Shown in pieces: positions 1-37,960 of a stretch of 37,960 nucleotides of DNA. The position numbers and the translations under genes were made by a program. The DNA comes from a virus (taxonomy: Duplodnaviria; Heunggongvirae; Uroviricota; Caudoviricetes). The number at the start of each line of letters is the position of its first letter. Position 1 is the first letter of the stretch. The notes under the pieces are model-generated. The model did no database searches. It had not been told where the DNA came from and was given only the letters and a program-made list of their open reading frames with translations. The stretch lies in IMG/VR virus record IMGVR_UViG_2588253749_000006; one strand, given 5' to 3'.

Positions 1-390
1 TTACTCTTTTTTCTCCGTATCTGCATCGGGTTCATCAGCAAATAGCTTGCCCTGCATCCGATCCAGTTCTTCTTTTCTTACCCGCTTAACCACGCTGTAG
101 ACCCACTGAAGCGAAACACCAAATTTGCGGGCCAGTTCGTGGTGGTTGCGTCCGTTAAACTCCCTGAAGATTTCCCGGTCGCGCTGACTGACCTTCCATA
201 CCATGCCCATTGGGAAATAAACGTTTTGCCCGCCCCAGACCTGCATCATTCGGTTCGCGACAGCCTGACCAATCTGGTCGGCAATTGCGGGCTCAATATC
301 AATAATCTCGCGAACGGTCTCAGAGGTATGCTGTGCCAGTTCCACCAGGAGTTCCGGCCCTTTACTTCGAAACTGATTCAGGTCGCTCAT
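1..390 (-). CDS. mor: Mor/C-family transcription activator (middle/late gene activator)
   Basis: 129 aa; C-terminal HTH region FNGRNHHELARKFGVSLQWVYSVVKR and NVYFPMG motif match my recollection of Mu Mor/C; sits at the distal end of the early operon directly after the GemA-like gene, as in Mu. Confidence 0.65.
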   Translation of the reverse strand: MSDLNQFRSKGPELLVELAQHTSETVREIIDIEPAIADQIGQAVANRMMQVWGGQNVYFPMGMVWKVSQRDREIFREFNGRNHHELARKFGVSLQWVYSVVKRVRKEELDRMQGKLFADEPDADTEKKE

Positions 391-814
391 GTTTTACTCC
401 CGCAGCTCTGCGCTGCCACTTCTTCAGTTTCTCAATAACACTGCTTGCCTGTTCAGTATTGAGCCAGCGCAGGGCGCTGATGCCCGTTTCCCGCTTGATC
501 CACCGCGCTAATGCATTTTCTGAACGGTCACGAACAATGCCGGCAGCAGCCATTTCAATCCATAGCGCACGGATTTTCCTGGACTGCGGATGGTTATCCA
601 GCGGTAAACCGGAGCTGGCTTTTCCGGCAGGCTTAACGCGAAAGCCTTTCCTTTTCATGGATTCCAGCACGCAGTTTAGTTGTGTGGTATCCATTCCTTT
701 GGTTGAGGCTTTACCGGTCAGCCCCTGTAACATCTGGCGGTAGGTGTCTTCATCCATACCCAGTTCATTACGGGCAATATGAATGAGCTGGATAAGACGT
801 TGTTTAGTCATCAT
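362..814 (-). CDS. GemA-like early protein (Mu gp16 family, DUF1018-like)
   Basis: Track ORF 362..853; start trimmed to tandem ATG ATG preceded by AAGGAG; motif KIRALWIEMAAAGIVRDRSENALARWIKRETGISALRWL resembles the Mu GemA family from memory. Confidence 0.55.
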   Translation of the reverse strand: MMTKQRLIQLIHIARNELGMDEDTYRQMLQGLTGKASTKGMDTTQLNCVLESMKRKGFRVKPAGKASSGLPLDNHPQSRKIRALWIEMAAAGIVRDRSENALARWIKRETGISALRWLNTEQASSVIEKLKKWQRRAAGVKHERPESVSK

Positions 815-8041: not shown

Positions 8042-8130
8042 TGTTGTCTCCTTTGTTGATGCAATGATGTTTGTTTTATATGTGATAGATTATGAGAACT
8101 ATTGTTCTCATTGTCAATGAGGTTTATGTG
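8040..8130. promoter_or_regulatory. divergent early/repressor control region with operator-like palindrome
   Basis: Short AT-rich gap between divergent ner-like and repressor genes; perfect inverted repeat TGAGAACTATTGTTCTCA at about 8093..8110. Confidence 0.4.
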
Positions 8131-8553
8131 AATTTTGATTCTCTTTGCGCGTCGCGGTTCAAAGCTGAGCGTTCGCGGTTATCACTCAAGCAGGCTGAAG
8201 TAGCAGCCCTTTGTGGCGTTTCAAGAGAAATGTGGGGGAAATATGAACGAGGGGTTGCAGTTCCCGGAGGTGAGTTACTTGCAGCCTTTGCAAGAATTGG
8301 GGCCAACGTACAGTTCATTCTTACTGGGGAATCATCAGGTATAACTTTATCACGTGATGAAATGGAGTTACTTCAGCACTACCGGCAAGCACCGTTACAA
8401 GTCAAAGGTTCAGTTTTGTCGGCATTGACGACTGGCTCCTCCAGAGAACGGGCGGAACAGGTTATTCATGGAGATGTTCTGGGGAATGTTATCAAAGGTA
8501 ACGTAACCATAGGAACAGGTGGAATAATGAACAAAAATACAAAGAGAAAATGA
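8092..8553 (+). CDS. XRE-family HTH repressor (immunity repressor candidate)
   Basis: HTH LSLKQAEVAALCGVSREMWGKYERG; divergent from the ner-like gene; true start may be the GTG near 8128 because the annotated ATG overlaps a palindrome. Confidence 0.65.
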   Translation: MRTIVLIVNEVYVNFDSLCASRFKAERSRLSLKQAEVAALCGVSREMWGKYERGVAVPGGELLAAFARIGANVQFILTGESSGITLSRDEMELLQHYRQAPLQVKGSVLSALTTGSSRERAEQVIHGDVLGNVIKGNVTIGTGGIMNKNTKRK

Positions 8554-9536
8554 GTAAAGAGAAGCAAACAGTTAACGGAGATGTGGGTAACGTTGTCAGC
8601 GGTGATGTTACCATTCATAACTATTCTGCTGACATACTTCCCTCTGCCCAGCAACCAATTTCGTTGCTGCAAAAACGCGATTTACACAGATTGATGGATG
8701 AATTGGTTGATCTGGGGGAAAGTAAGCGCGAACTATGGATGACGATCCACACGAAACTTAATACCAAAACAGTTAATGAAATGACTGCGGCTGATTATCA
8801 TGGTGCGGTTGAGATCCTCCAGAGATATGCACAACAGATCCAGAATATGAAGGACTGTAATCTTCTGGTCAGCAAAATAATGGTGCTTACTGACCCTAGG
8901 TATCGTCTTGACCGTGACAGATACTGTCTGAAGCATTTCGGTACAACCCATCTTAAAGGCCTGGACAAAGAGCAGTTGCAGGCTGTGTTTGGTTATTTTG
9001 ATGATCTGCTGAATATTCGTGATGAGAGTAAAACTCTATCACCTCCATCGGACAGCGGGGCAAAATCAGTCGCGACTGTACCAACCAGAAGCCGGAAGCC
9101 TCATGTAGTAGTGTTGGGGGGAGCGTTAGTTCTTGTCGCAATATTTTTCGTGGGAATGATTGTGTTCGCTGGTAAATGGGGAAATGCTAAAGCAGTAGCA
9201 TCTACTGAAACCAGCGTTTTTAACATTAAAACCAACGACAAAATAATAGAAGATTCCATCCCAGCATTACGCAGCATGTTTCCAGGGTTAAATAAGTACT
9301 CAGATGATTTCCATTCGGTTTCAAGCTACAAGCAAAAATCGGGCTGGCATACCCTTAAATTCACGGTGTCTACACAGGCAATAATACCTGAATCTTATGG
9401 TGTTAAAGGGAAAACTTGTTACATCAACATAAACCCCGATGGTCGTTATGCCCGTGTTTTGACCGCCCCATGTAGAGCTCTATTACTTGACCAACAAAAC
9501 ACTCCAGATAGTAAATATCGTTATATTTTGAAATAG
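8550..9536 (+). CDS. unknown single-pass membrane protein, translationally coupled to the repressor
   Basis: 328 aa; ATGA start/stop overlap with the repressor gene; central hydrophobic segment VVVLGGALVLVAIFFVGMIVFAG; AT-rich. Confidence 0.6.
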   Translation: MSKEKQTVNGDVGNVVSGDVTIHNYSADILPSAQQPISLLQKRDLHRLMDELVDLGESKRELWMTIHTKLNTKTVNEMTAADYHGAVEILQRYAQQIQNMKDCNLLVSKIMVLTDPRYRLDRDRYCLKHFGTTHLKGLDKEQLQAVFGYFDDLLNIRDESKTLSPPSDSGAKSVATVPTRSRKPHVVVLGGALVLVAIFFVGMIVFAGKWGNAKAVASTETSVFNIKTNDKIIEDSIPALRSMFPGLNKYSDDFHSVSSYKQKSGWHTLKFTVSTQAIIPESYGVKGKTCYININPDGRYARVLTAPCRALLLDQQNTPDSKYRYILK

Positions 9537-9556: not shown

Positions 9557-10048
9557 ATGGGGCTAATTAAACGATATAGAACAGATTATCCGAACCAAGT
9601 ACATCAACTTTCTGTTGCTGTTTCAAAGCATTATTATGCGGGAGTTGATGGATTGCTTAAGTACCAGAAAAAACCATTTGATATAAAACTTAGCAATGCA
9701 AGTAAAACTGGAAAAGATCATTTACTAGTCTATTCGTTACGCGATCACTACAGTGGTTTGTTTTATATAGAATTGGCATTTCTTTCTACACCACAACCTA
9801 TAACAGCTTTTTTGGGAAGGGCATGGAGGCCAAAGGAAGATAACGTGTTACAGGGTCTTCCTGATATGCTGATGATCCCCAAAACTGTAGAAGATGAGTT
9901 CCCTAACGTATGTAATGCCGTTTATAACCAAGGAGTTGATCTTTTAAAAGTAACCAGCGGTTTTCAGAGTGGAGGGCTTATCGCCATACGAGCGGTAGAG
10001 GAAGATCTTAAATTCTACACAAATACTCCTATAGCACGAGTTTCGTGA
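9557..10048 (+). CDS. unknown protein, second gene of the repressor-linked cassette
   Basis: 163-aa ORF 20 bp after the previous gene; AT-rich; no recognisable motif. Confidence 0.5.
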   Translation: MGLIKRYRTDYPNQVHQLSVAVSKHYYAGVDGLLKYQKKPFDIKLSNASKTGKDHLLVYSLRDHYSGLFYIELAFLSTPQPITAFLGRAWRPKEDNVLQGLPDMLMIPKTVEDEFPNVCNAVYNQGVDLLKVTSGFQSGGLIAIRAVEEDLKFYTNTPIARVS

Positions 10049-10578: not shown

Positions 10579-11154
10579 ATGGGAACGTATTACACACTTG
10601 ATTCCGCTAGTCGTCTGCCTTCGCCTTGTCATGTAATTACCGGAAAATACGAGCCTGAAATGCCAGAACTGGCCGCTTTTCTTCATCAGATGTATCCCAA
10701 TGGCCTTTCGAGTCACGGGTATAACTATCTCTATAACCCCGGCCCTAAAATGGAAGATGACAGTGGAATCAGCAGAAGTCTGCTGGTCGGTCTGGTGTTT
10801 GAGTTAGTTCGCCGTAGCCATTTTCCTGATAAACCTTCCCGCTATCAGTCACTGTTTGCCTGTCAGCATCTGAGTGAAGTCAGGAAGTTCAGGGAATTAC
10901 TGGCTGATGAGAGAGGCGAAGACGAAATAAGAACGGCACCGATATATGAAGTCATCACAAATGAGCAGGTGCATCGCGGAGATATGAGGTTATTGAACAG
11001 TGATTGCCCGGTGCTGGAACTGTATCACCGTGCTTGGCTTTACTGGTCGGGTGAAGCAGCCCCAGTTAAGACTGGTGAGGACGAACCGTTCTGGGAACTG
11101 CTGATTCCGCTTCCAGTATTCGTTGGTCGAAGGATAACTGAATCGCAGGATTAG
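10579..11154 (+). CDS. unknown protein (accessory region)
   Basis: 191-aa ORF with an upstream AAGGA. Confidence 0.5.
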   Translation: MGTYYTLDSASRLPSPCHVITGKYEPEMPELAAFLHQMYPNGLSSHGYNYLYNPGPKMEDDSGISRSLLVGLVFELVRRSHFPDKPSRYQSLFACQHLSEVRKFRELLADERGEDEIRTAPIYEVITNEQVHRGDMRLLNSDCPVLELYHRAWLYWSGEAAPVKTGEDEPFWELLIPLPVFVGRRITESQD

Positions 11155-30104: not shown

Positions 30105-30613
30105 CTGGTGTCACCCGCCAGGTCGGTACGGTCAGTGCCGTTGATGCCGACAGGGTTCAGGCCCGCGTTCGTCTGCCTGAATGCGATAATCTGCGCACAA
30201 ACTGGCTTAACGTGCTGCAGCGCAATACCCAGGATAACAAGGATTACTGGCTCCCTGACGTGGGGGAGCAGGTTGAGGTGCTGCTCGATGCCAACGGCGA
30301 GGATGGTGTTATTCTGGGCGCGGTGTACTCAGACGTCGATAAACCGCCGTTCGGTGATAAAAACGTCCGGGGCACGAAGTACGCTGATGGCGCGGAGTTC
30401 AGTTATGACCGCGCGACCCATACGCTGACGGTCAAAGGAGGTATCGAGCATGTGGTGATCGAGGTTGCAGTGGGTATTAGTCTGAAAGGGAAAACCATTG
30501 ATTTGACAGCTGACACTATCATGGTGAACGGCAATCTTGAAATCAAAGGGAGTACCCATGCGACTGGTAACATATTTGCAGATGGACAGAATTCCAATCA
30601 TCACTCTCACTAA
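30101..30613 (+). CDS. baseplate spike/assembly protein V-like (Mu gp45-like)
   Basis: 170 aa; N-terminal GTVSAVDADRVQARVRLPE ... typical of gpV. Confidence 0.7.
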   Translation: MTGVTRQVGTVSAVDADRVQARVRLPECDNLRTNWLNVLQRNTQDNKDYWLPDVGEQVEVLLDANGEDGVILGAVYSDVDKPPFGDKNVRGTKYADGAEFSYDRATHTLTVKGGIEHVVIEVAVGISLKGKTIDLTADTIMVNGNLEIKGSTHATGNIFADGQNSNHHSH

Positions 30614-30694
30614 TTTTTCAAGTATGTGACTCCATTTCCTCTCCCGCGGATATGATAGAATTTTTTAATTAACACTAATTTGGCGGGGACTTAA

Positions 30695-31411
30695 ATGCGG
30701 TTATCAAGATCCTTATGTAAAGTAGTTGGCGATGTCATTGCTAACTCAGGCTCTCATGCAGCTTTAGATACGTTATTTCTTACTTCGGGAGCACCAGGAA
30801 ACCCTCCGGCAGGATCTCATAGTACAAAATGGAAAGACTGGTTATTTCTTGCAGGGCAAGATCCAGATACAGATAGTCTGGCAGTTCTGGGCGGAGTAAT
30901 TGAGGAGTTTATGGATTTACCTCCAAAAGAAGGTACTCCCGAATATGCAGAATGGAAGGAAAAACGAGACAGAATTGAAGCTGTGTTACAAGAGAATGGA
31001 CTTAGATATTATCGTTTTGGTCGAGTGTTGCCTGAAGGCCACATCCCGTCACACAATATGGATTACCCAGAGACCATAATTACTTATCAACAGCCAGTAA
31101 TGCCAGAAAAAGTTGAGAACTTACTGGAAAGGCTGGTCAAAGGCTTACAGCGAGCAATGCATCCACTTACTCATAGGCGAAAAGGAAGCCAGTCATTATC
31201 TTTTAGCAATGAATATGACGTGCAAGACCTTCTCCATGCATTGCTCAGACCATGGGTTCAGGACATCCGCCCAGAAGAGTTTACTCCAAGTTACGCTGGT
31301 TCAAGTACTCGAATGGATTTTTTGTTACCTGCGCATAAATTAGTACTGGAAACCAAAATTGTTCGTGATCGTTCTCATGCAAAGAAAATCGGCGATGAAC
31401 TTATTATCGAT
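30695..31411 (+). pseudogene. 5' part of an AT-rich cargo gene interrupted by IS2; C-terminal region resembles a PD-(D/E)xK nuclease core
   Basis: The track ORF's stop is the first three bases (TAG) of the IS2 left end; reading frame resumes at 32748; candidate catalytic D in RMDFLL and ExK in LVLETK. Confidence 0.6.
31407..31411. repeat. IS2 target-site duplication, left copy (TCGAT)
   Basis: Identical 5-mer abuts both IS2 ends. Confidence 0.85.
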
Positions 31412-31502
31412 TAGACTGGCCCCCTGAATCTCCAGACAACCAGTATCACTTAAATAAGTGATAGTCTTAATACTAGTTTTTAGACTAGTCATTGGAGAAC
31501 AG

Positions 31503-31868
31503 ATGATTGATGTCTTAGGGCCGGAGAAACGCAGACGGCGTACCACACAGGAAAAGATCGCAATTGTTCAGCAGAGCTTTGAACCGGGGATGACGGTCTC
31601 CCTCGTTGCCCGGCAACATGGTGTAGCAGCCAGCCAGTTATTTCTCTGGCGTAAGCAATACCAGGAAGGAAGTCTTACTGCTGTCGCCGCCGGAGAACAG
31701 GTTGTTCCTGCCTCTGAACTTGCTGCCGCCATGAAGCAGATTAAAGAACTCCAGCGCCTGCTCGGCAAGAAAACGATGGAAAATGAACTCCTCAAAGAAG
31801 CCGTTGAATATGGACGGGCAAAAAAGTGGATAGCGCACGCGCCCTTATTGCCCGGGGATGGGGAGTAA
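31503..31868 (+). CDS. insC: IS2 OrfA (InsC)
   Basis: 121 aa starting [24 protein letters not shown], recognised as IS2 InsC. Confidence 0.9.
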
Positions 31869-32731
31869 GCTTAGTCAGCCGTTGTCTCCGGGTGTCGCGT
31901 GCGCAGTTGCACGTCATTCTCAGACGAACCGATGACTGGATGGATGGCCGCCGCAGTCGTCACACTGATGATACGGATGTGCTTCTCCGTATACACCATG
32001 TTATCGGAGAGCTGCCCACGTATGGTTATCGTCGGGTATGGGCGCTGCTTCGCAGACAGGCAGAACTTGATGGTATGCCTGCGATCAATGCCAAACGTGT
32101 TTACCGGATCATGCGCCAGAATGCGCTGTTGCTTGAGCGAAAACCTGCTGTACCGCCATCGAAACGGGCACATACAGGCAGAGTGGCCGTGAAAGAAAGC
32201 AATCAGCGATGGTGCTCTGACGGGTTCGAGTTCTGCTGTGATAACGGAGAGAGACTGCGTGTCACGTTCGCGCTGGACTGCTGTGATCGTGAGGCACTGC
32301 ACTGGGCGGTGACTACCGGCGGCTTCAACAGTGAAACAGTACAGGACGTCATGCTGGGAGCGGTGGAACGCCGCTTCGGCAACGATCTTCCGTCGTCTCC
32401 AGTGGAGTGGCTGACGGATAATGGTTCATGCTACCGGGCTAATGAAACACGCCAGTTCGCCCGGATGTTGGGACTTGAACCGAAGAACACGGCGGTGCGG
32501 AGTCCGGAGAGTAACGGAATAGCAGAGAGCTTCGTGAAAACGATAAAGCGTGACTACATCAGTATCATGCCCAAACCAGACGGGTTAACGGCAGCAAAGA
32601 ACCTTGCAGAGGCGTTCGAGCATTATAACGAATGGCATCCGCATAGTGCGCTGGGTTATCGCTCGCCACGGGAATATCTGCGGCAGCGGGCTTGTAATGG
32701 GTTAAGTGATAACAGATGTCTGGAAATATAG
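31826..32731 (+). CDS. insD: IS2 OrfB (InsD) transposase catalytic part
   Basis: 301 aa recognised as IS2 InsD; overlaps InsC in the -1 frame at the A6G site. Confidence 0.9.
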
Positions 32732-32742
32732 GGGCAAATCCA

Positions 32743-32747
32743 TCGAT
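32743..32747. repeat. IS2 target-site duplication, right copy (TCGAT)
   Basis: Identical to 31407..31411. Confidence 0.85.
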
Positions 32748-32906
32748 ATAGAGCATTATCGTCGGCACTCTGATTGCAAAAATCTCTGGTGTGTCATCTA
32801 CGATCCGAACCAGCTTATTACTAATTCTGAGGGGCTGAAATCTGATCTTGAGGGGAAGAGAGTTTCTAAAGACGGAGAACTTATCGTCAAGGTTTTCGTA
32901 ATTTAA
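32748..32906 (+). pseudogene. 3' part of the IS2-interrupted cargo gene
   Basis: In frame with 30695..31411 once IS2 and one TCGAT copy are removed (about 291 aa reconstructed). Confidence 0.55.
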
Positions 32907-32929
32907 CAAACGTATCAATAACTCCTTTT

Positions 32930-32952
32930 TAAATCCCTTTAATATCGTTCTT
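32930..32952 (+). promoter_or_regulatory. candidate late-promoter activator site upstream of the baseplate operon
   Basis: CCTTTAATATCGT about 30-45 bp upstream of the gpW-like start; the same motif recurs near 11457 and 24826. Confidence 0.35.
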
Positions 32953-32977
32953 TTCTTACTGGGGCAATACTGCCCCC

Positions 32978-34992: not shown

Positions 34993-35937
34993 ATGGCAAA
35001 TCTACCTGAAACCCCACAGTGGGAAGACGGCATCTACCAGATTGAGGTCTCTGACCCCGTTCTGGGCGGGCCTGACGGAATTTCTAACCGTCAGGGTAAA
35101 CAACTGGCCAGCCGCACGCTGTACCTGAAGCAACAGGTTGAAAAAGGCGGGGCTGACCTTGCGAAACACATCGCGGCAGCAGACCCGCATGCCCAGTATG
35201 CACCGAAAGCCAGTCCGGCATTCACCGGCACACCAACAGCACCTACACCTGCAAATGGCGATAACAGCAAAAAGCTGGCGACGACGGAGTTTGTGGCCAA
35301 AGCACTTGCGGCGCTTGCAGGCAGCGCCCCTGAGACACTGGATACGCTTAAAGAGCTGGCTGACGCTCTCGGTAATGATCCAAACTTTGCGACTACGGTA
35401 CTGAACAAGCTGGCGGAAAAGCTGGCTAAAGACCAGAACGGCGCAGATATTCCTGATCCTGCGCTGTTTGTCAAAAACCTTGGTTTGGGAGAAGGTACTC
35501 CAGCTATTGGCGTTCCGTTCTTCTGGCCCTCCGCGGCAATGCCAAATACTGTAATCGACAGCTGGTCCAGTATGGTGTTTTTGAAGTTCAACGGGGCGAA
35601 ATTTTCTGCCACTGATTACCCTGTGCTGGCGAAAGTGTTTCCTTCGCTGGTATTACCTGAAGCCCGCGGTGATTTCATTCGTATCTGGGATGACGGGCGA
35701 GGTGTAGACGGTGGTCGCGAATTATTAAGCTGGCAGGCAGCTACAAACTTTTCTCAGTTTGCCGGGAATATAGGCGATGGTGCGGGCCACGCAATTAATT
35801 TTCATGATGGTATCGCCGGAAATCAGCCAGGATTTTCACGATTTAATTTCACCAGTAACTCTGTGGGTGATGGTGTGAATTTTGTTGCCGTCAGACCGCG
35901 AAATATTGCATTTAACTTTCTGGTGAGGGCTAAATGA
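34993..35937 (+). CDS. tail fibre protein; constant N-terminal part plus currently expressed variable C-terminal part
   Basis: 314 aa; the recombination site lies in-frame at codons 159-167, so everything downstream is inside the invertible segment. Confidence 0.75.
   Translation: MANLPETPQWEDGIYQIEVSDPVLGGPDGISNRQGKQLASRTLYLKQQVEKGGADLAKHIAAADPHAQYAPKASPAFTGTPTAPTPANGDNSKKLATTEFVAKALAALAGSAPETLDTLKELADALGNDPNFATTVLNKLAEKLAKDQNGADIPDPALFVKNLGLGEGTPAIGVPFFWPSAAMPNTVIDSWSSMVFLKFNGAKFSATDYPVLAKVFPSLVLPEARGDFIRIWDDGRGVDGGRELLSWQAATNFSQFAGNIGDGAGHAINFHDGIAGNQPGFSRFNFTSNSVGDGVNFVAVRPRNIAFNFLVRAK
35468..35493. repeat. left invertase crossover site (gix/hix-like), inside the tail fibre gene
   Basis: TTGTCAAAAACCTTGGTTTGGGAGAA; 21 of 26 positions identical to the reverse complement of the right site, with a perfect 14-bp core TTGGTTTGGGAGAA. 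Confidence 0.6.
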
Positions 35938-36530
35938 TGACCCCAATTTTTGATGAAAATGGACTGGCTACAGTGCCGGGCGATATGCGTTGTTTTTATT
36001 ATGATGCAGTAACGTATGAATATACGGGCTGGTCTGATGAATATATTAATACTGGTGTAAGTATGCCCGCCTGTTCCACTGGTATTGACCCGGGCGAAAA
36101 CATTCCGGGAAAAGTGGCAGTATTTACGGGTAAGGGATGGAGCCATGAAGAAGACCATCGCAATGAGACTGTTTACTCAACAGAAAATGGTGCAACTGTT
36201 ACAGTGGATTATATCGGTGCCATCAAAGACGGTTATGTCACGCTTTCACCGTTAACGCCATACGATAAATGGGATGGTGAGAAATGGGTGACAGATTCTG
36301 AGGCACAACACGGTGCCGCAGTAGAAGCGGCAGAAGCACAGCGCCAGTCACTTATTGATGCAGCAATGGCTTCCATTAGTCTGATTCAGCTGAAATTACG
36401 GGCCGGGCGGAAGCTGATGCAGGCAGAGACCTCCCGACTTAACACTGTGCTGGATTACATTGACGCGGTGACGGCAACAGATACCAGCACCGCGCCGGAT
36501 GTCATCTGGCCTGAACTGCCGGAGGAGTAG
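35934..36530 (+). CDS. tail fibre assembly chaperone (Tfa/U-like), expressed orientation
   Basis: 198 aa directly after the fibre gene; C-terminal DYIDAVTATDTSTAPDVIWPELP. Confidence 0.7.
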   Translation: MMTPIFDENGLATVPGDMRCFYYDAVTYEYTGWSDEYINTGVSMPACSTGIDPGENIPGKVAVFTGKGWSHEEDHRNETVYSTENGATVTVDYIGAIKDGYVTLSPLTPYDKWDGEKWVTDSEAQHGAAVEAAEAQRQSLIDAAMASISLIQLKLRAGRKLMQAETSRLNTVLDYIDAVTATDTSTAPDVIWPELPEE

Positions 36531-36942
36531 GCCATTCAATATCTGGCGCACTGGAAGTATCGACCAGCTCCAGTGCGTCCAGATAATCCAGCCACAAATT
36601 ATATTGCGCCAGTTCCTCACCTTTCAGACGACCAATAGCCGCTTTACCAGCCCATTGTTTACTGTTCATATAATCGTTGGCCTGATTAATCAATTGCTGC
36701 TTTTTCAGTTCGGCTGCAGCAATCTGTTCCTCATGTGTTGGTGGTGGAATTTCAGACCATGCAGGAAAACCATTTTCTCCAGCGATACGGATTTTTCCTT
36801 TCGGCGGTAATCCGGAAAACTCAATATACACTTGCTCATCAACTTCAACAGCATCATCTGGCCATGAGTCAGCTTGCGTGTAATCCTCTTTCATCTCCAA
36901 GGGATAGAAAGAGTTTGTAGTCGCGGAATATATGTAATTCAT
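36502..36942 (-). CDS. alternative tail fibre assembly chaperone (U'-like), silent orientation
   Basis: 146 aa convergent with and overlapping the Tfa gene; C-terminal DYLDALELVDTSSAPDIEWPTPP. Confidence 0.7.
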   Translation of the reverse strand: MNYIYSATTNSFYPLEMKEDYTQADSWPDDAVEVDEQVYIEFSGLPPKGKIRIAGENGFPAWSEIPPPTHEEQIAAAELKKQQLINQANDYMNSKQWAGKAAIGRLKGEELAQYNLWLDYLDALELVDTSSAPDIEWPTPPAVQAR

Positions 36943-36968
36943 TTTTCACTCCATAAAGTTAAAAGAAA

Positions 36969-37316
36969 TTAACACCCTAATGCGAAAAATGAAGCACCGA
37001 TACCGGGTACGCCTGCTCTGGAAATAAATTTCACCGGGTCCTGGTTATAACCGGCACAAGCTATATAGCCAACATTTGCACTGCCGGGAGTGTAATCCTG
37101 AGTTGCAAATACCCGCAGACATCTATTCGGAAATGCAATCGGAAAATAGGTTACTGTGTCCTGAGACGTCAGCGAAACATCAATTGGCCCCCATTGAATA
37201 ATTAAACCGGATGGCAATTTTTGATATCCAGTACCTGAAACAGAAAGCGTGAAGCTACCCATATCAGGTATCTGATTCGTCCCTGTCCCCACATTCCTTT
37301 TTGCCGCTTCTCCCAA
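36969..37316 (-). CDS. alternative tail fibre variable C-terminal cassette (Sv'-like), promoterless
   Basis: 115-aa frame opening at the right crossover site, in the same codon phase (GGT TTG GGA GAA) as the fibre gene at the left site. Confidence 0.6.
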
Positions 37317-37333
37317 ACCAACGTTTTCGTCTT
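37308..37333. repeat. right invertase crossover site (gix/hix-like)
   Basis: TTCTCCCAAACCAACGTTTTCGTCTT, about 55 bp upstream of the invertase start. Confidence 0.6.
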
Positions 37334-37387
37334 AACTCCCACCTATACCAGCTATGTATTTTTAACAAAACAAAGAGGATATTTTTC

Positions 37388-37960
37388 ATGCAAATTGGCT
37401 ACATTCGTGTGTCAACAAATGACCAGAATACAGATTTACAACGAAACGCACTGAACTGCGCAGGATGTGAACTGATTTTTGAGGATAAAATCAGCGGAAC
37501 AAAGTCAGCCCGACCGGGATTGAAAAAGCTGCTCAGAACGTTATCAGAAGGAGATACGCTCGTTGTCTGGAAGCTGGATAGGCTGGGCAGAAGCATGAAA
37601 CACCTTATCACTCTTATTGAGGAACTGCGGGGAAAAGGGGGTAATTTCCGTAGTCTTACAGACAGCATTGATACGTCAACACCCATGGGACGTTTCTTTT
37701 TTCACGTCATGGGGGCTTTAGCGGAAATGGAGCGCGAATTAATAGTTGAACGAACACTGGCCGGACTTGAGGCAGCACGTGCACAGGGGCGTATTGGCGG
37801 ACGCCGTCCGAAACTGACAAAAGAGCAACATGAACAAATAGCAAGGCTGATCAAAAATGGCTATAGCAGGAAACAGTTGGCAATTATTTACGATATCGGT
37901 ATATCGACGATTTATCGTTATCACCCTGTAGAGGAACTCCAAACTCAAGCTAAGTTGTAA
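37388..37960 (+). CDS. serine DNA invertase (Gin/Pin/Hin/Cin family)
   Basis: 190 aa from the ATG with AAGAGGA RBS inside track ORF 37301..37960; MQIGYIRVSTNDQNTDLQRNAL ... closely resembles e14 Pin / Mu Gin as I recall them. Confidence 0.9.
   Translation: MQIGYIRVSTNDQNTDLQRNALNCAGCELIFEDKISGTKSARPGLKKLLRTLSEGDTLVVWKLDRLGRSMKHLITLIEELRGKGGNFRSLTDSIDTSTPMGRFFFHVMGALAEMERELIVERTLAGLEAARAQGRIGGRRPKLTKEQHEQIARLIKNGYSRKQLAIIYDIGISTIYRYHPVEELQTQAKL

Follow-up and report, generated by a model that had tools for sequence, protein, structure and literature searches.

An IS2-interrupted moron gene in a transposable prophage of Escherichia coli B7A encodes a putative single-chain nuclease of AbiJ-like layout

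Abortive-infection systems of the AbiJ type, among them AbiJ/Abi-859 of Lactococcus, Taranis, SadR and the Abi_C proteins bearing one of the N-terminal domains AbiJ-NTD1 to NTD5, are built as a single chain in which a variable N-terminal module precedes a C-terminal toxin, and they have no partner protein. The five N-terminal domains (NTDs) were found fused to HEPN, restriction endonuclease (REase), TIR or kinase domains and were proposed to be sensors or an antitoxin, acting as auto-inhibitors of the attached toxin; fusions of an NTD with an REase domain were noted computationally in that same study (Anantharaman et al., 2013; PMC3710099). The present analysis concerns a gene of comparable layout in a prophage of Escherichia coli B7A. 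The IMG/VR record IMGVR_UViG_2588253749_000006, a stretch of 37,960 nucleotides referred to below as the window, holds between its baseplate genes V and W an accessory (cargo) gene that is split by the insertion sequence (IS) IS2. Judged from its sequence, the product has the AbiJ-like single-chain layout with the effector swapped for a DNase, here in the form of a broken copy.

Two further systems bear on the nuclease part of this protein. Once activated, bAgaN, the nuclease of the long-B Argonaute system BPAN, kills by degrading genomic DNA; with EcbAgaN, DNase activity, genomic DNA degradation and cell killing are all lost in the mutants M1 (D298A) and M2 (E309A-K311A) (Song et al., 2023; PMC10620215). 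The Pfam nuclease family PF18742, in turn, serves as an alternative effector domain of the Detocs systems (Rousset et al., 2023). With regard to position, the nearest precedent is the defence cargo carried in the tail hotspots of P2-like phages, such as the Z/fun locus (Rousset et al., 2022).

A first-pass annotation of the window, made from its letters alone, had described an AT-rich open reading frame (ORF) between a V-like and a W-like gene, had noted that its stop codon is supplied by the first three bases of IS2, and had proposed that removal of the element and one TCGAT copy joins the two parts in frame to about 291 residues. All of this was borne out. Both the list of ORFs and RefSeq place the gene between V and W, and its GC content is 42%, with 36-38% in its short flanks, compared with 54% in the rest of the window. 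The upstream ORF (30695-31414, 239 aa) ends with the TAG that opens IS2, and joining 30695-31411 to 32748-32906 yields an uninterrupted ORF of 876 bp and 291 codons. The intervening element has the features expected of IS2: it is 1331 bp long, its ends form an imperfect inverted repeat, 5 bp of the target are duplicated, and its two transposase frames overlap. RefSeq labels it 'IS3-like element IS2 family transposase' and records a programmed frameshift. Intact copies, which the annotation had advised looking for in related prophages, occur in 11 E. coli genomes. Over 1028 bp, the repaired ORF and its flanks show 100.0% identity to the uninterrupted alleles of E. coli JNEC-KY202 and CFIAFB20190167 and 99.9% identity to those of nine more E. 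coli genomes; given this identity, the reconstruction represents a real allele (WP_001371051.1; P0001) and not an artefact. In B7A, IS2 removes the last 52 residues (240-291), which comprise the last strands of the nuclease core and nine invariant positions (H242, Y243, H246, C249, L252, W253, C254, Y257 and D258), so that the product of the interrupted gene is very probably inactive. RefSeq annotates a spurious 66-aa ORF over the 3' part, the start of which lies within IS2.

The C-terminal part of the protein, in which a PD-(D/E)xK-like core had been suspected, matches PF18742 (REase_DpnII-MboI) over residues 143-286 with a score of 160 bits against a cut-off of 27 bits (E=4e-47), and the match spans positions 2-147 of the 150 of the profile. 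The residues that had been singled out as catalytic were also well chosen: D208 of the motif RMDFLL, together with E219 and K221 of LVLETK, are invariant in 78 homologues (67-91% identity) and align with the catalytic residues D298, E309 and K311 of EcbAgaN, the sole solved relative recognizable by sequence (PDB 23wq, E=2e-5). The order of secondary-structure elements in an AlphaFold 2 (AF2) model fits an alpha-beta-beta-beta-alpha-beta core; a Foldseek comparison of the full model with the PDB returned nothing significant, the best match being Can2 at E=0.19. The C-terminus is predicted from these alignments to be a PD-(D/E)xK nuclease with an intact D-ExK active site. At E<=1, neither Abi_C in Pfam nor AbiJ in PADLOC matched the cargo protein. 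The pAgo-associated Helical-REase models of PADLOC match its nuclease domain only (E=1.8e-30, profile positions 224-362 of 378), and the matching PHROG family has no known function.

EcbAgaN thus possesses a homologous nuclease of the PF18742 type, its D, E and K aligning residue for residue, and its mode of killing is the effector behaviour proposed for the cargo protein. However, the helical N-terminal domain of bAgaN is not shared, the PADLOC match being confined to the profile positions given above, and no Argonaute gene was found in the annotation of the window or at the homologue loci examined. With neither an Argonaute partner nor the N-terminal domain of bAgaN, the mode of activation must differ from that of BPAN. 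The likeness to Detocs lies in the use of the same Pfam nuclease family as an interchangeable effector of a validated defence system, but Detocs is a three-gene phosphorelay, and no such genes adjoin the cargo gene in the annotation of the window.

The name of the Pfam family suggests another function, that of an orphan restriction enzyme of type II, akin to DpnII and MboI, which would cut unmethylated GATC while the Dam methylation of the host protects the chromosome. R.DpnII is close to 291 residues in size, and enterobacterial hosts are Dam-positive. Homologues with approximately 70% identity, however, occur in Pseudomonas aeruginosa and the Burkholderiales, which are generally regarded as lacking Dam. 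No methyltransferase gene adjoins the cargo gene of the window, which is flanked by V and W, or its homologues at the loci of P. aeruginosa, Salmonella, Dickeya and Pantoea, and this, together with the occurrence in P. aeruginosa and Burkholderiales, argues against a restriction-modification (R-M) enzyme in the usual sense. Moreover, PF18742 was the only family reported at E<=1, with no match to the separate family of DpnII restriction enzymes, the N-terminal domain is shared with effectors that are not nucleases, and the nearest characterized relative, EcbAgaN, is a non-specific DNase (PMC10620215). A restriction function of this kind is considered very unlikely.

The N-terminal region of about 150 residues had been described as unrecognized. 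This stands insofar as no Pfam model matches residues 1-113, but those residues form a module common to AbiJ-HEPN, TIR, PNP and kinase proteins. In the AF2 model they adopt five helices and a beta-hairpin, with a pLDDT of about 90, and are followed by a disordered linker (residues 114-135) that is variable among homologues. A search of a word-indexed protein database with the N-terminal 138 residues returned only fragments of the same family, while an exhaustive profile search of 1.84 billion cluster representatives retrieved 422 proteins with the domain. Pfam scans of 138 new representatives revealed fusions to Abi_C, the AbiJ-type HEPN domain, in 24 of them, to the PF18742 REase in six, to TIR_2 in four, to the CAP12/Pycsar TIR in three, to PNP_UDP_1 in two and to a protein kinase of the PD-T4-6/Stk2 type in one. 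Two representatives carry AbiJ_NTD3 ahead of the N-domain, one of which reads AbiJ_NTD3, N-domain, Abi_C. In PADLOC, the domains fused to it correspond to defence effectors that have been validated (AbiJ, a CBASS PNP effector and the PD-T4-6/Stk2 kinases). Furthermore, a 272-aa plasmid-encoded 'abortive infection family protein' has an N-domain counterpart at an hhalign probability of 98.3%, and its C-terminus matches AbiJ of PADLOC. None of the AbiJ_NTD models of Pfam was reported on the N-domain itself; NTD3 and NTD4 of the same library matched other proteins, and a model for NTD5 is reported to exist. The pattern of fusions equals that described for AbiJ-NTD1 to NTD5, and the N-domain is a recurrent, shuffled module of the AbiJ type which, by analogy, would act as a sensor and auto-inhibitor of the attached effector. 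A 430-aa version on a viral contig (L075, 2300-3592) has an extra N-terminal extension of approximately 148 residues ahead of the N-domain.

A bolder proposal would make the N-domain a death-fold-like switch that has escaped modelling, self-assembles on a phage cue and thereby activates whichever effector is attached, be it a DNase, HEPN RNase, TIR, PNP or kinase; such proteins would constitute a new and broad class of single-chain immune sensors, and the IS insertions described below would record an autoimmune cost in enterotoxigenic E. coli (ETEC) lineages. This is quite doubtful. Bacterial death-fold adaptor domains have six helices and are recruited homotypically by a matching domain on a partner protein; the modelled N-domain has five helices and a hairpin, and no second copy of it was found on a neighbouring protein in the window or at 13 homologue loci.

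Compared with AbiJ-type systems, the cargo protein has the same organization, and its N-domain has homologues at the N-terminus or in the middle of AbiJ-type HEPN proteins; it differs in that the effector is a predicted PD-(D/E)xK DNase rather than the Abi_C HEPN RNase, the defining domain of those systems being absent. The locus is best explained as the IS2-inactivated remnant of a moron, and we consider it fairly probable that the intact gene encodes a single-chain, two-domain and auto-inhibited DNase that serves in abortive infection or against invading elements. A role in anti-phage defence or exclusion is suggested by the architecture, by homology and by the gene neighbourhoods. The intact 291-aa protein, composed of a helical AbiJ-type module of approximately 113 residues, a flexible linker and the PF18742 DNase, would be produced in the lysogen from the moron's own leader. 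Its N-terminal module would keep the nuclease silent until a cue is received from an infecting phage or another invading element, whereupon the released DNase would degrade the DNA of the invader, and probably that of the host too, so that the infection is aborted; no partner gene would be needed. In B7A and its relatives, the loss of the last 52 residues to IS2 would have left a dead gene, to which IS100 and ISEc43 were later added.

Expression in the lysogen is suggested only by TGATAGAAT (30653-30661) in the leader of the moron, an extended -10-like motif that is conserved in a Yersinia copy of the gene and may be the promoter. The leader also carries a Shine-Dalgarno-like GGGGA. Several observations weigh against the proposal. 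A generic scan for two-hexamer promoters and for terminators gave no hit in either the leader or the tail of the moron; with only a conserved -10-like motif, and with a scan devoid of promoter or terminator, the gene may instead be co-transcribed with the late tail operon. No model of the whole protein exists in PADLOC v2 or NCBIfam, and some homologues, such as those of Pantoea, lie in unremarkable chromosomal regions where no mobile element is evident. Finally, no experimental work on any member of the cargo family was found in the literature.

The status of the gene as a moron follows from comparison with related prophages. A related V gene is present in about 636 of 5,426 complete E. coli genomes, but only 18 carry the cargo. 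It is absent from five sampled E. coli relatives, where V and W are separated by about 55-58 bp, and a survey at the species level showed a bare spacer of 58-76 bp at 22 of the 26 loci for which both V and W were found. Junction alignments place the insert immediately after the stop codon of V, with the native spacer retained downstream. These alignments and the absence from most relatives indicate that the gene is a moron and not a component of the baseplate. The first-pass annotation had itself raised the prospect that the intact homologue might prove to be a conserved baseplate component, and the comparative data already refute this. A structural or assembly role in the baseplate is favoured by nothing except the position between V and W. 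Opposed to it are the absences just listed, a base composition unlike that of the backbone, the nuclease domain and the occurrence of homologues outside phages, and its probability is close to nil.

The same V-W slot is occupied in other lineages. A Yersinia prophage holds a copy with 91% identity, and three Brenneria prophages hold an unrelated gene of 281-292 aa with the same geometry (L064, 5615-6460; L065; L068, 5615-6493). The Brenneria product matches AbiJ_NTD4 (E=3e-36) and the PADLOC candidate PDC-S32 (E=1.5e-111). It resembles the E. coli cargo in its slot, its mode of insertion and its layout as a single gene for an AbiJ-type NTD with a C-terminal domain, but the two are unrelated in sequence, the N-domains differ, and the Brenneria C-terminal domain is not PF18742. 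Considered together, the E. coli/Yersinia and Brenneria cargoes indicate that AbiJ-NTD-type cargo has entered the V-W junction on two or more occasions. As in the hotspots of P2-like phages, an accessory gene, here AT-rich, stands between conserved tail or baseplate genes of a temperate phage whose tail is of the P2 type; in contrast to these, the host phage is a transposable one of the Mu/BcepMu type, and its junction is filled only sporadically, in an E. coli/Yersinia and a Brenneria lineage, and is empty in most relatives. No description of the V-W junction as a hotspot was met in the literature, where no search was aimed at one. A phage GenBank collection contained no close relative of the cargo, the sole match being a weak similarity to the REase domain in a Clostridioides phage.

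Location within the late tail operon, on the same strand and with no terminator on either side, would also suit a nuclease that serves the phage itself, through late-operon expression and the degradation of host DNA, through action against host defences, or as a free-standing homing endonuclease that spreads its gene between V and W. Such homing endonuclease genes typically lie between conserved phage genes, and in the Brenneria prophages the leader of the cargo ORF in this slot measures just 26 bp. Nevertheless, homologues with 70-90% identity reside in an integrative and conjugative element (ICE), integrase islands, a plasmid and an R-M island, which do not represent one target site, and the N-domain is common to RNase, TIR, PNP and kinase effectors, which are incapable of homing. 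In addition, the other cargo of the slot, of the AbiJ_NTD4/PDC-S32 type, is not a DNase, and in most relatives the prophage backbone lives without the gene. A benefit to the phage of this kind is judged unlikely.

The full 291-aa architecture is found in more than 3,000 relatives across the Proteobacteria, with approximately 70% identity still seen in Pseudomonas, Burkholderiales, Permianibacter and Alishewanella. The surroundings of these genes vary. In E. coli a homologue lies in an integrase/AlpA island; in Salmonella it occupies an island where it adjoins genes for a TIR protein and a DUF4365-TPR protein; in P. aeruginosa it belongs to an island and moves with the gene of a trypsin-like protease; in Dickeya it opens the cargo of an ICE, following the integrase gene; in Alishewanella it adjoins a complete type I R-M system and a reverse transcriptase; in Enterobacter it is carried by a plasmid; and on several viral contigs it is found outside the V-W slot. 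The P. aeruginosa block (L011 and L013, 5516-9304), which occurs at two chromosomal sites, comprises the homologue, a 234-aa protein, a 483-aa trypsin-like protease and a 104-aa protein; the protease weakly matches the RT-Protease models of PADLOC. The lead that the protease or the 234-aa protein might share the N-domain, in the manner of a death domain or CARD, was dropped when hhalign detected no similarity, and no protein of the block shares the domain.

Proteins of about 263 aa, encoded on many phage contigs and IncX plasmids, combine the same REase domain with a different N-terminal region. One of them, on IncX plasmid CP122800.1 (L031, 3686-4477), is a PF18742 nuclease of 263 aa that is annotated as 'malate dehydrogenase', adjoins AbiD and is widespread on conjugative plasmids. 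Many intact members of the cargo family are named 'transposase' in NCBI records, which looks like a propagated annotation error. Among the nuclease-fusion systems described in the text of a Vibrio integron study, none is reported with PF18742.

The history of IS insertions can be followed among the 18 E. coli carriers of the gene, which is intact in 11 of them and disrupted in seven (sites and strains in Table 1). Since the prophage occupies the same chromosomal site in the six strains with IS2, this insertion is regarded as one ancestral event; the prophage of ATCC 43896 lies at a different chromosomal site, and its ISCro1 is consequently an independent event. All four insertions seen in the prophage family fall within the 876-bp cargo ORF, and no other IS was found elsewhere in the prophages of B7A, TW10573 and ATCC 43896. 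As the ORF accounts for 2.4% of the prophage, the pair of independent first hits (IS2 and ISCro1) has a probability of about 6e-4 under uniform insertion and of about 0.03 if insertion is limited to AT-rich DNA, and the significance disappears if it is limited to dispensable accessory genes. Another species has a frameshifted homologue; two truncated homologues (P0121 and P0122) stop at contig ends of draft assemblies, where additional IS elements may have inserted. The pattern fits, and is suggestive of, selection against a costly nuclease, but a preference for AT-rich targets or simple dispensability could also explain it. Whatever its cause, the natural series of alleles (intact, IS2, IS2 with IS100, IS2 with IS100 and ISEc43, and the independent ISCro1) offers ready-made controls for cost and function.

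The confinement of every IS to the cargo ORF, and the frameshift in another species, would equally be expected if the gene encoded the toxin of an addiction or stabilization module, or a generically toxic nuclease, that is kept by its mobility and from which IS hits remove the poison. Such a toxin would seem improbable: no conserved neighbour, antitoxin or immunity gene was found, the small ORFs downstream of the gene in Pseudomonas, Pantoea, Dickeya, E. coli and Salmonella being mutually unrelated, and the gene is intact in the 11 E. coli carriers mentioned and in thousands of other sequences. An auto-inhibited single-chain design would make a separate antitoxin unnecessary, and in this respect the toxin shades into the auto-inhibited defence DNase favoured here.

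The window itself corresponds to the prophage of E. coli B7A, with 0 mismatches to NZ_CP035812.1 across the 27,347 bases compared. Two 1-bp indels distinguish the sequences in the left part (one at window position 2116, the other between 9557 and 10579), the second of which converts an ORF annotated as 203 aa in RefSeq B7A to one of 163 aa in the window; both are probably homopolymer differences between assemblies. The window comprises a complete transposable prophage with genes for Mor, gp16, Gam, a MuB-like ATPase, a DDE transposase and a repressor, head genes of the DUF3486 and DUF935 families, and a tail module of the P2 type whose genes run from sheath, tube and tape measure through U, X, D, V, W, J and I to the fibre, together with an invertase. 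Its chromosomal site differs from strain to strain. The features of the cargo locus are collected in Table 1.

Table 1. Features at the V-W junction of the window and IS insertions in the cargo ORF of E. coli prophages (ORF nt, ORF nucleotide coordinate).
Feature	Position	Strand	Basis or remark
Baseplate assembly/spike gene V, 170 aa	30101..30613	+	ORF list; RefSeq 'phage baseplate assembly protein V'; junction alignment; upstream boundary of moron
AT-rich leader of moron, 81 bp	30614..30694	+	Kept in Yersinia copy, absent from cargo-free relatives
5' part of cargo ORF, codons 1-239	30695..31411	+	N-domain (aa 1-113), linker (114-135), most of PF18742 including D208, E219 and K221
Left TCGAT target-site duplication	31407..31411		Sequence
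IS2, 1331 bp, transposase genes on + strand	31412..32742	+	Sequence; ORF list; RefSeq
Right TCGAT target-site duplication	32743..32747		Sequence
3' part of cargo ORF, codons 240-291 and stop	32748..32906	+	Last strands and helix of nuclease core
3' tail of moron	32907..32922	+	Junction alignment; end approximate (+/- 3 bp), where homology to cargo-free relatives restarts
Native V-W spacer, phage backbone	32923..32977	+	Junction alignments; kept downstream of insert
GPW/gp25-type baseplate wedge gene W, 115 aa	32978..33325	+	ORF list and RefSeq; downstream boundary
IS2	ORF nt 713-717		B7A, four Indian isolates, TW10573
IS100	ORF nt 429-436		Five of the six IS2 strains
ISEc43	ORF nt 663-672		TW10573 only
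ISCro1	ORF nt 148-155		ATCC 43896

Several other features of the prophage were noted. A hairpin, GGGGCA-ATAC-TGCCCC (32961-32976), ends one base before the start codon of W; it is kept in prophages of E. coli and Yersinia whether or not these carry the cargo, and may serve the phage backbone as a signal for translation or processing. The C-terminal part of V (window 30400-30613) is highly variable among otherwise similar prophages, the protein measuring 170, 175, 198, 200 or 247 aa, and the DNA identity of V genes falls after about nucleotide 300-330. At the right end (35900-37960), oppositely oriented fragments of fibre and fibre-assembly genes and a Gin-like recombinase form an invertible tail-fibre segment, as in Mu, and a partial gp53-like gene there belongs to this arrangement and is not a sign of decay. 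Downstream of a repressor-like helix-turn-helix gene (8092-8553) lie three AT-rich genes (8550-9536, 328 aa; 9557-10048, 163 aa; 10579-11154, 191 aa) that have no Pfam or PADLOC match except for a weak one to DUF2441 on the third. They may represent additional cargo that the lysogen expresses, and none of them contains an IS insertion in any strain examined.

If the gene has no function in defence, the locus is an ordinary IS-disrupted accessory nuclease gene of a prophage. If, on the other hand, the intact gene protects against phage, it would represent a widespread single-gene defence family borne by prophages, ICEs, plasmids and islands. The N-terminal module, found on five effector chemistries, offers an attractive handle on what such single-chain systems sense.

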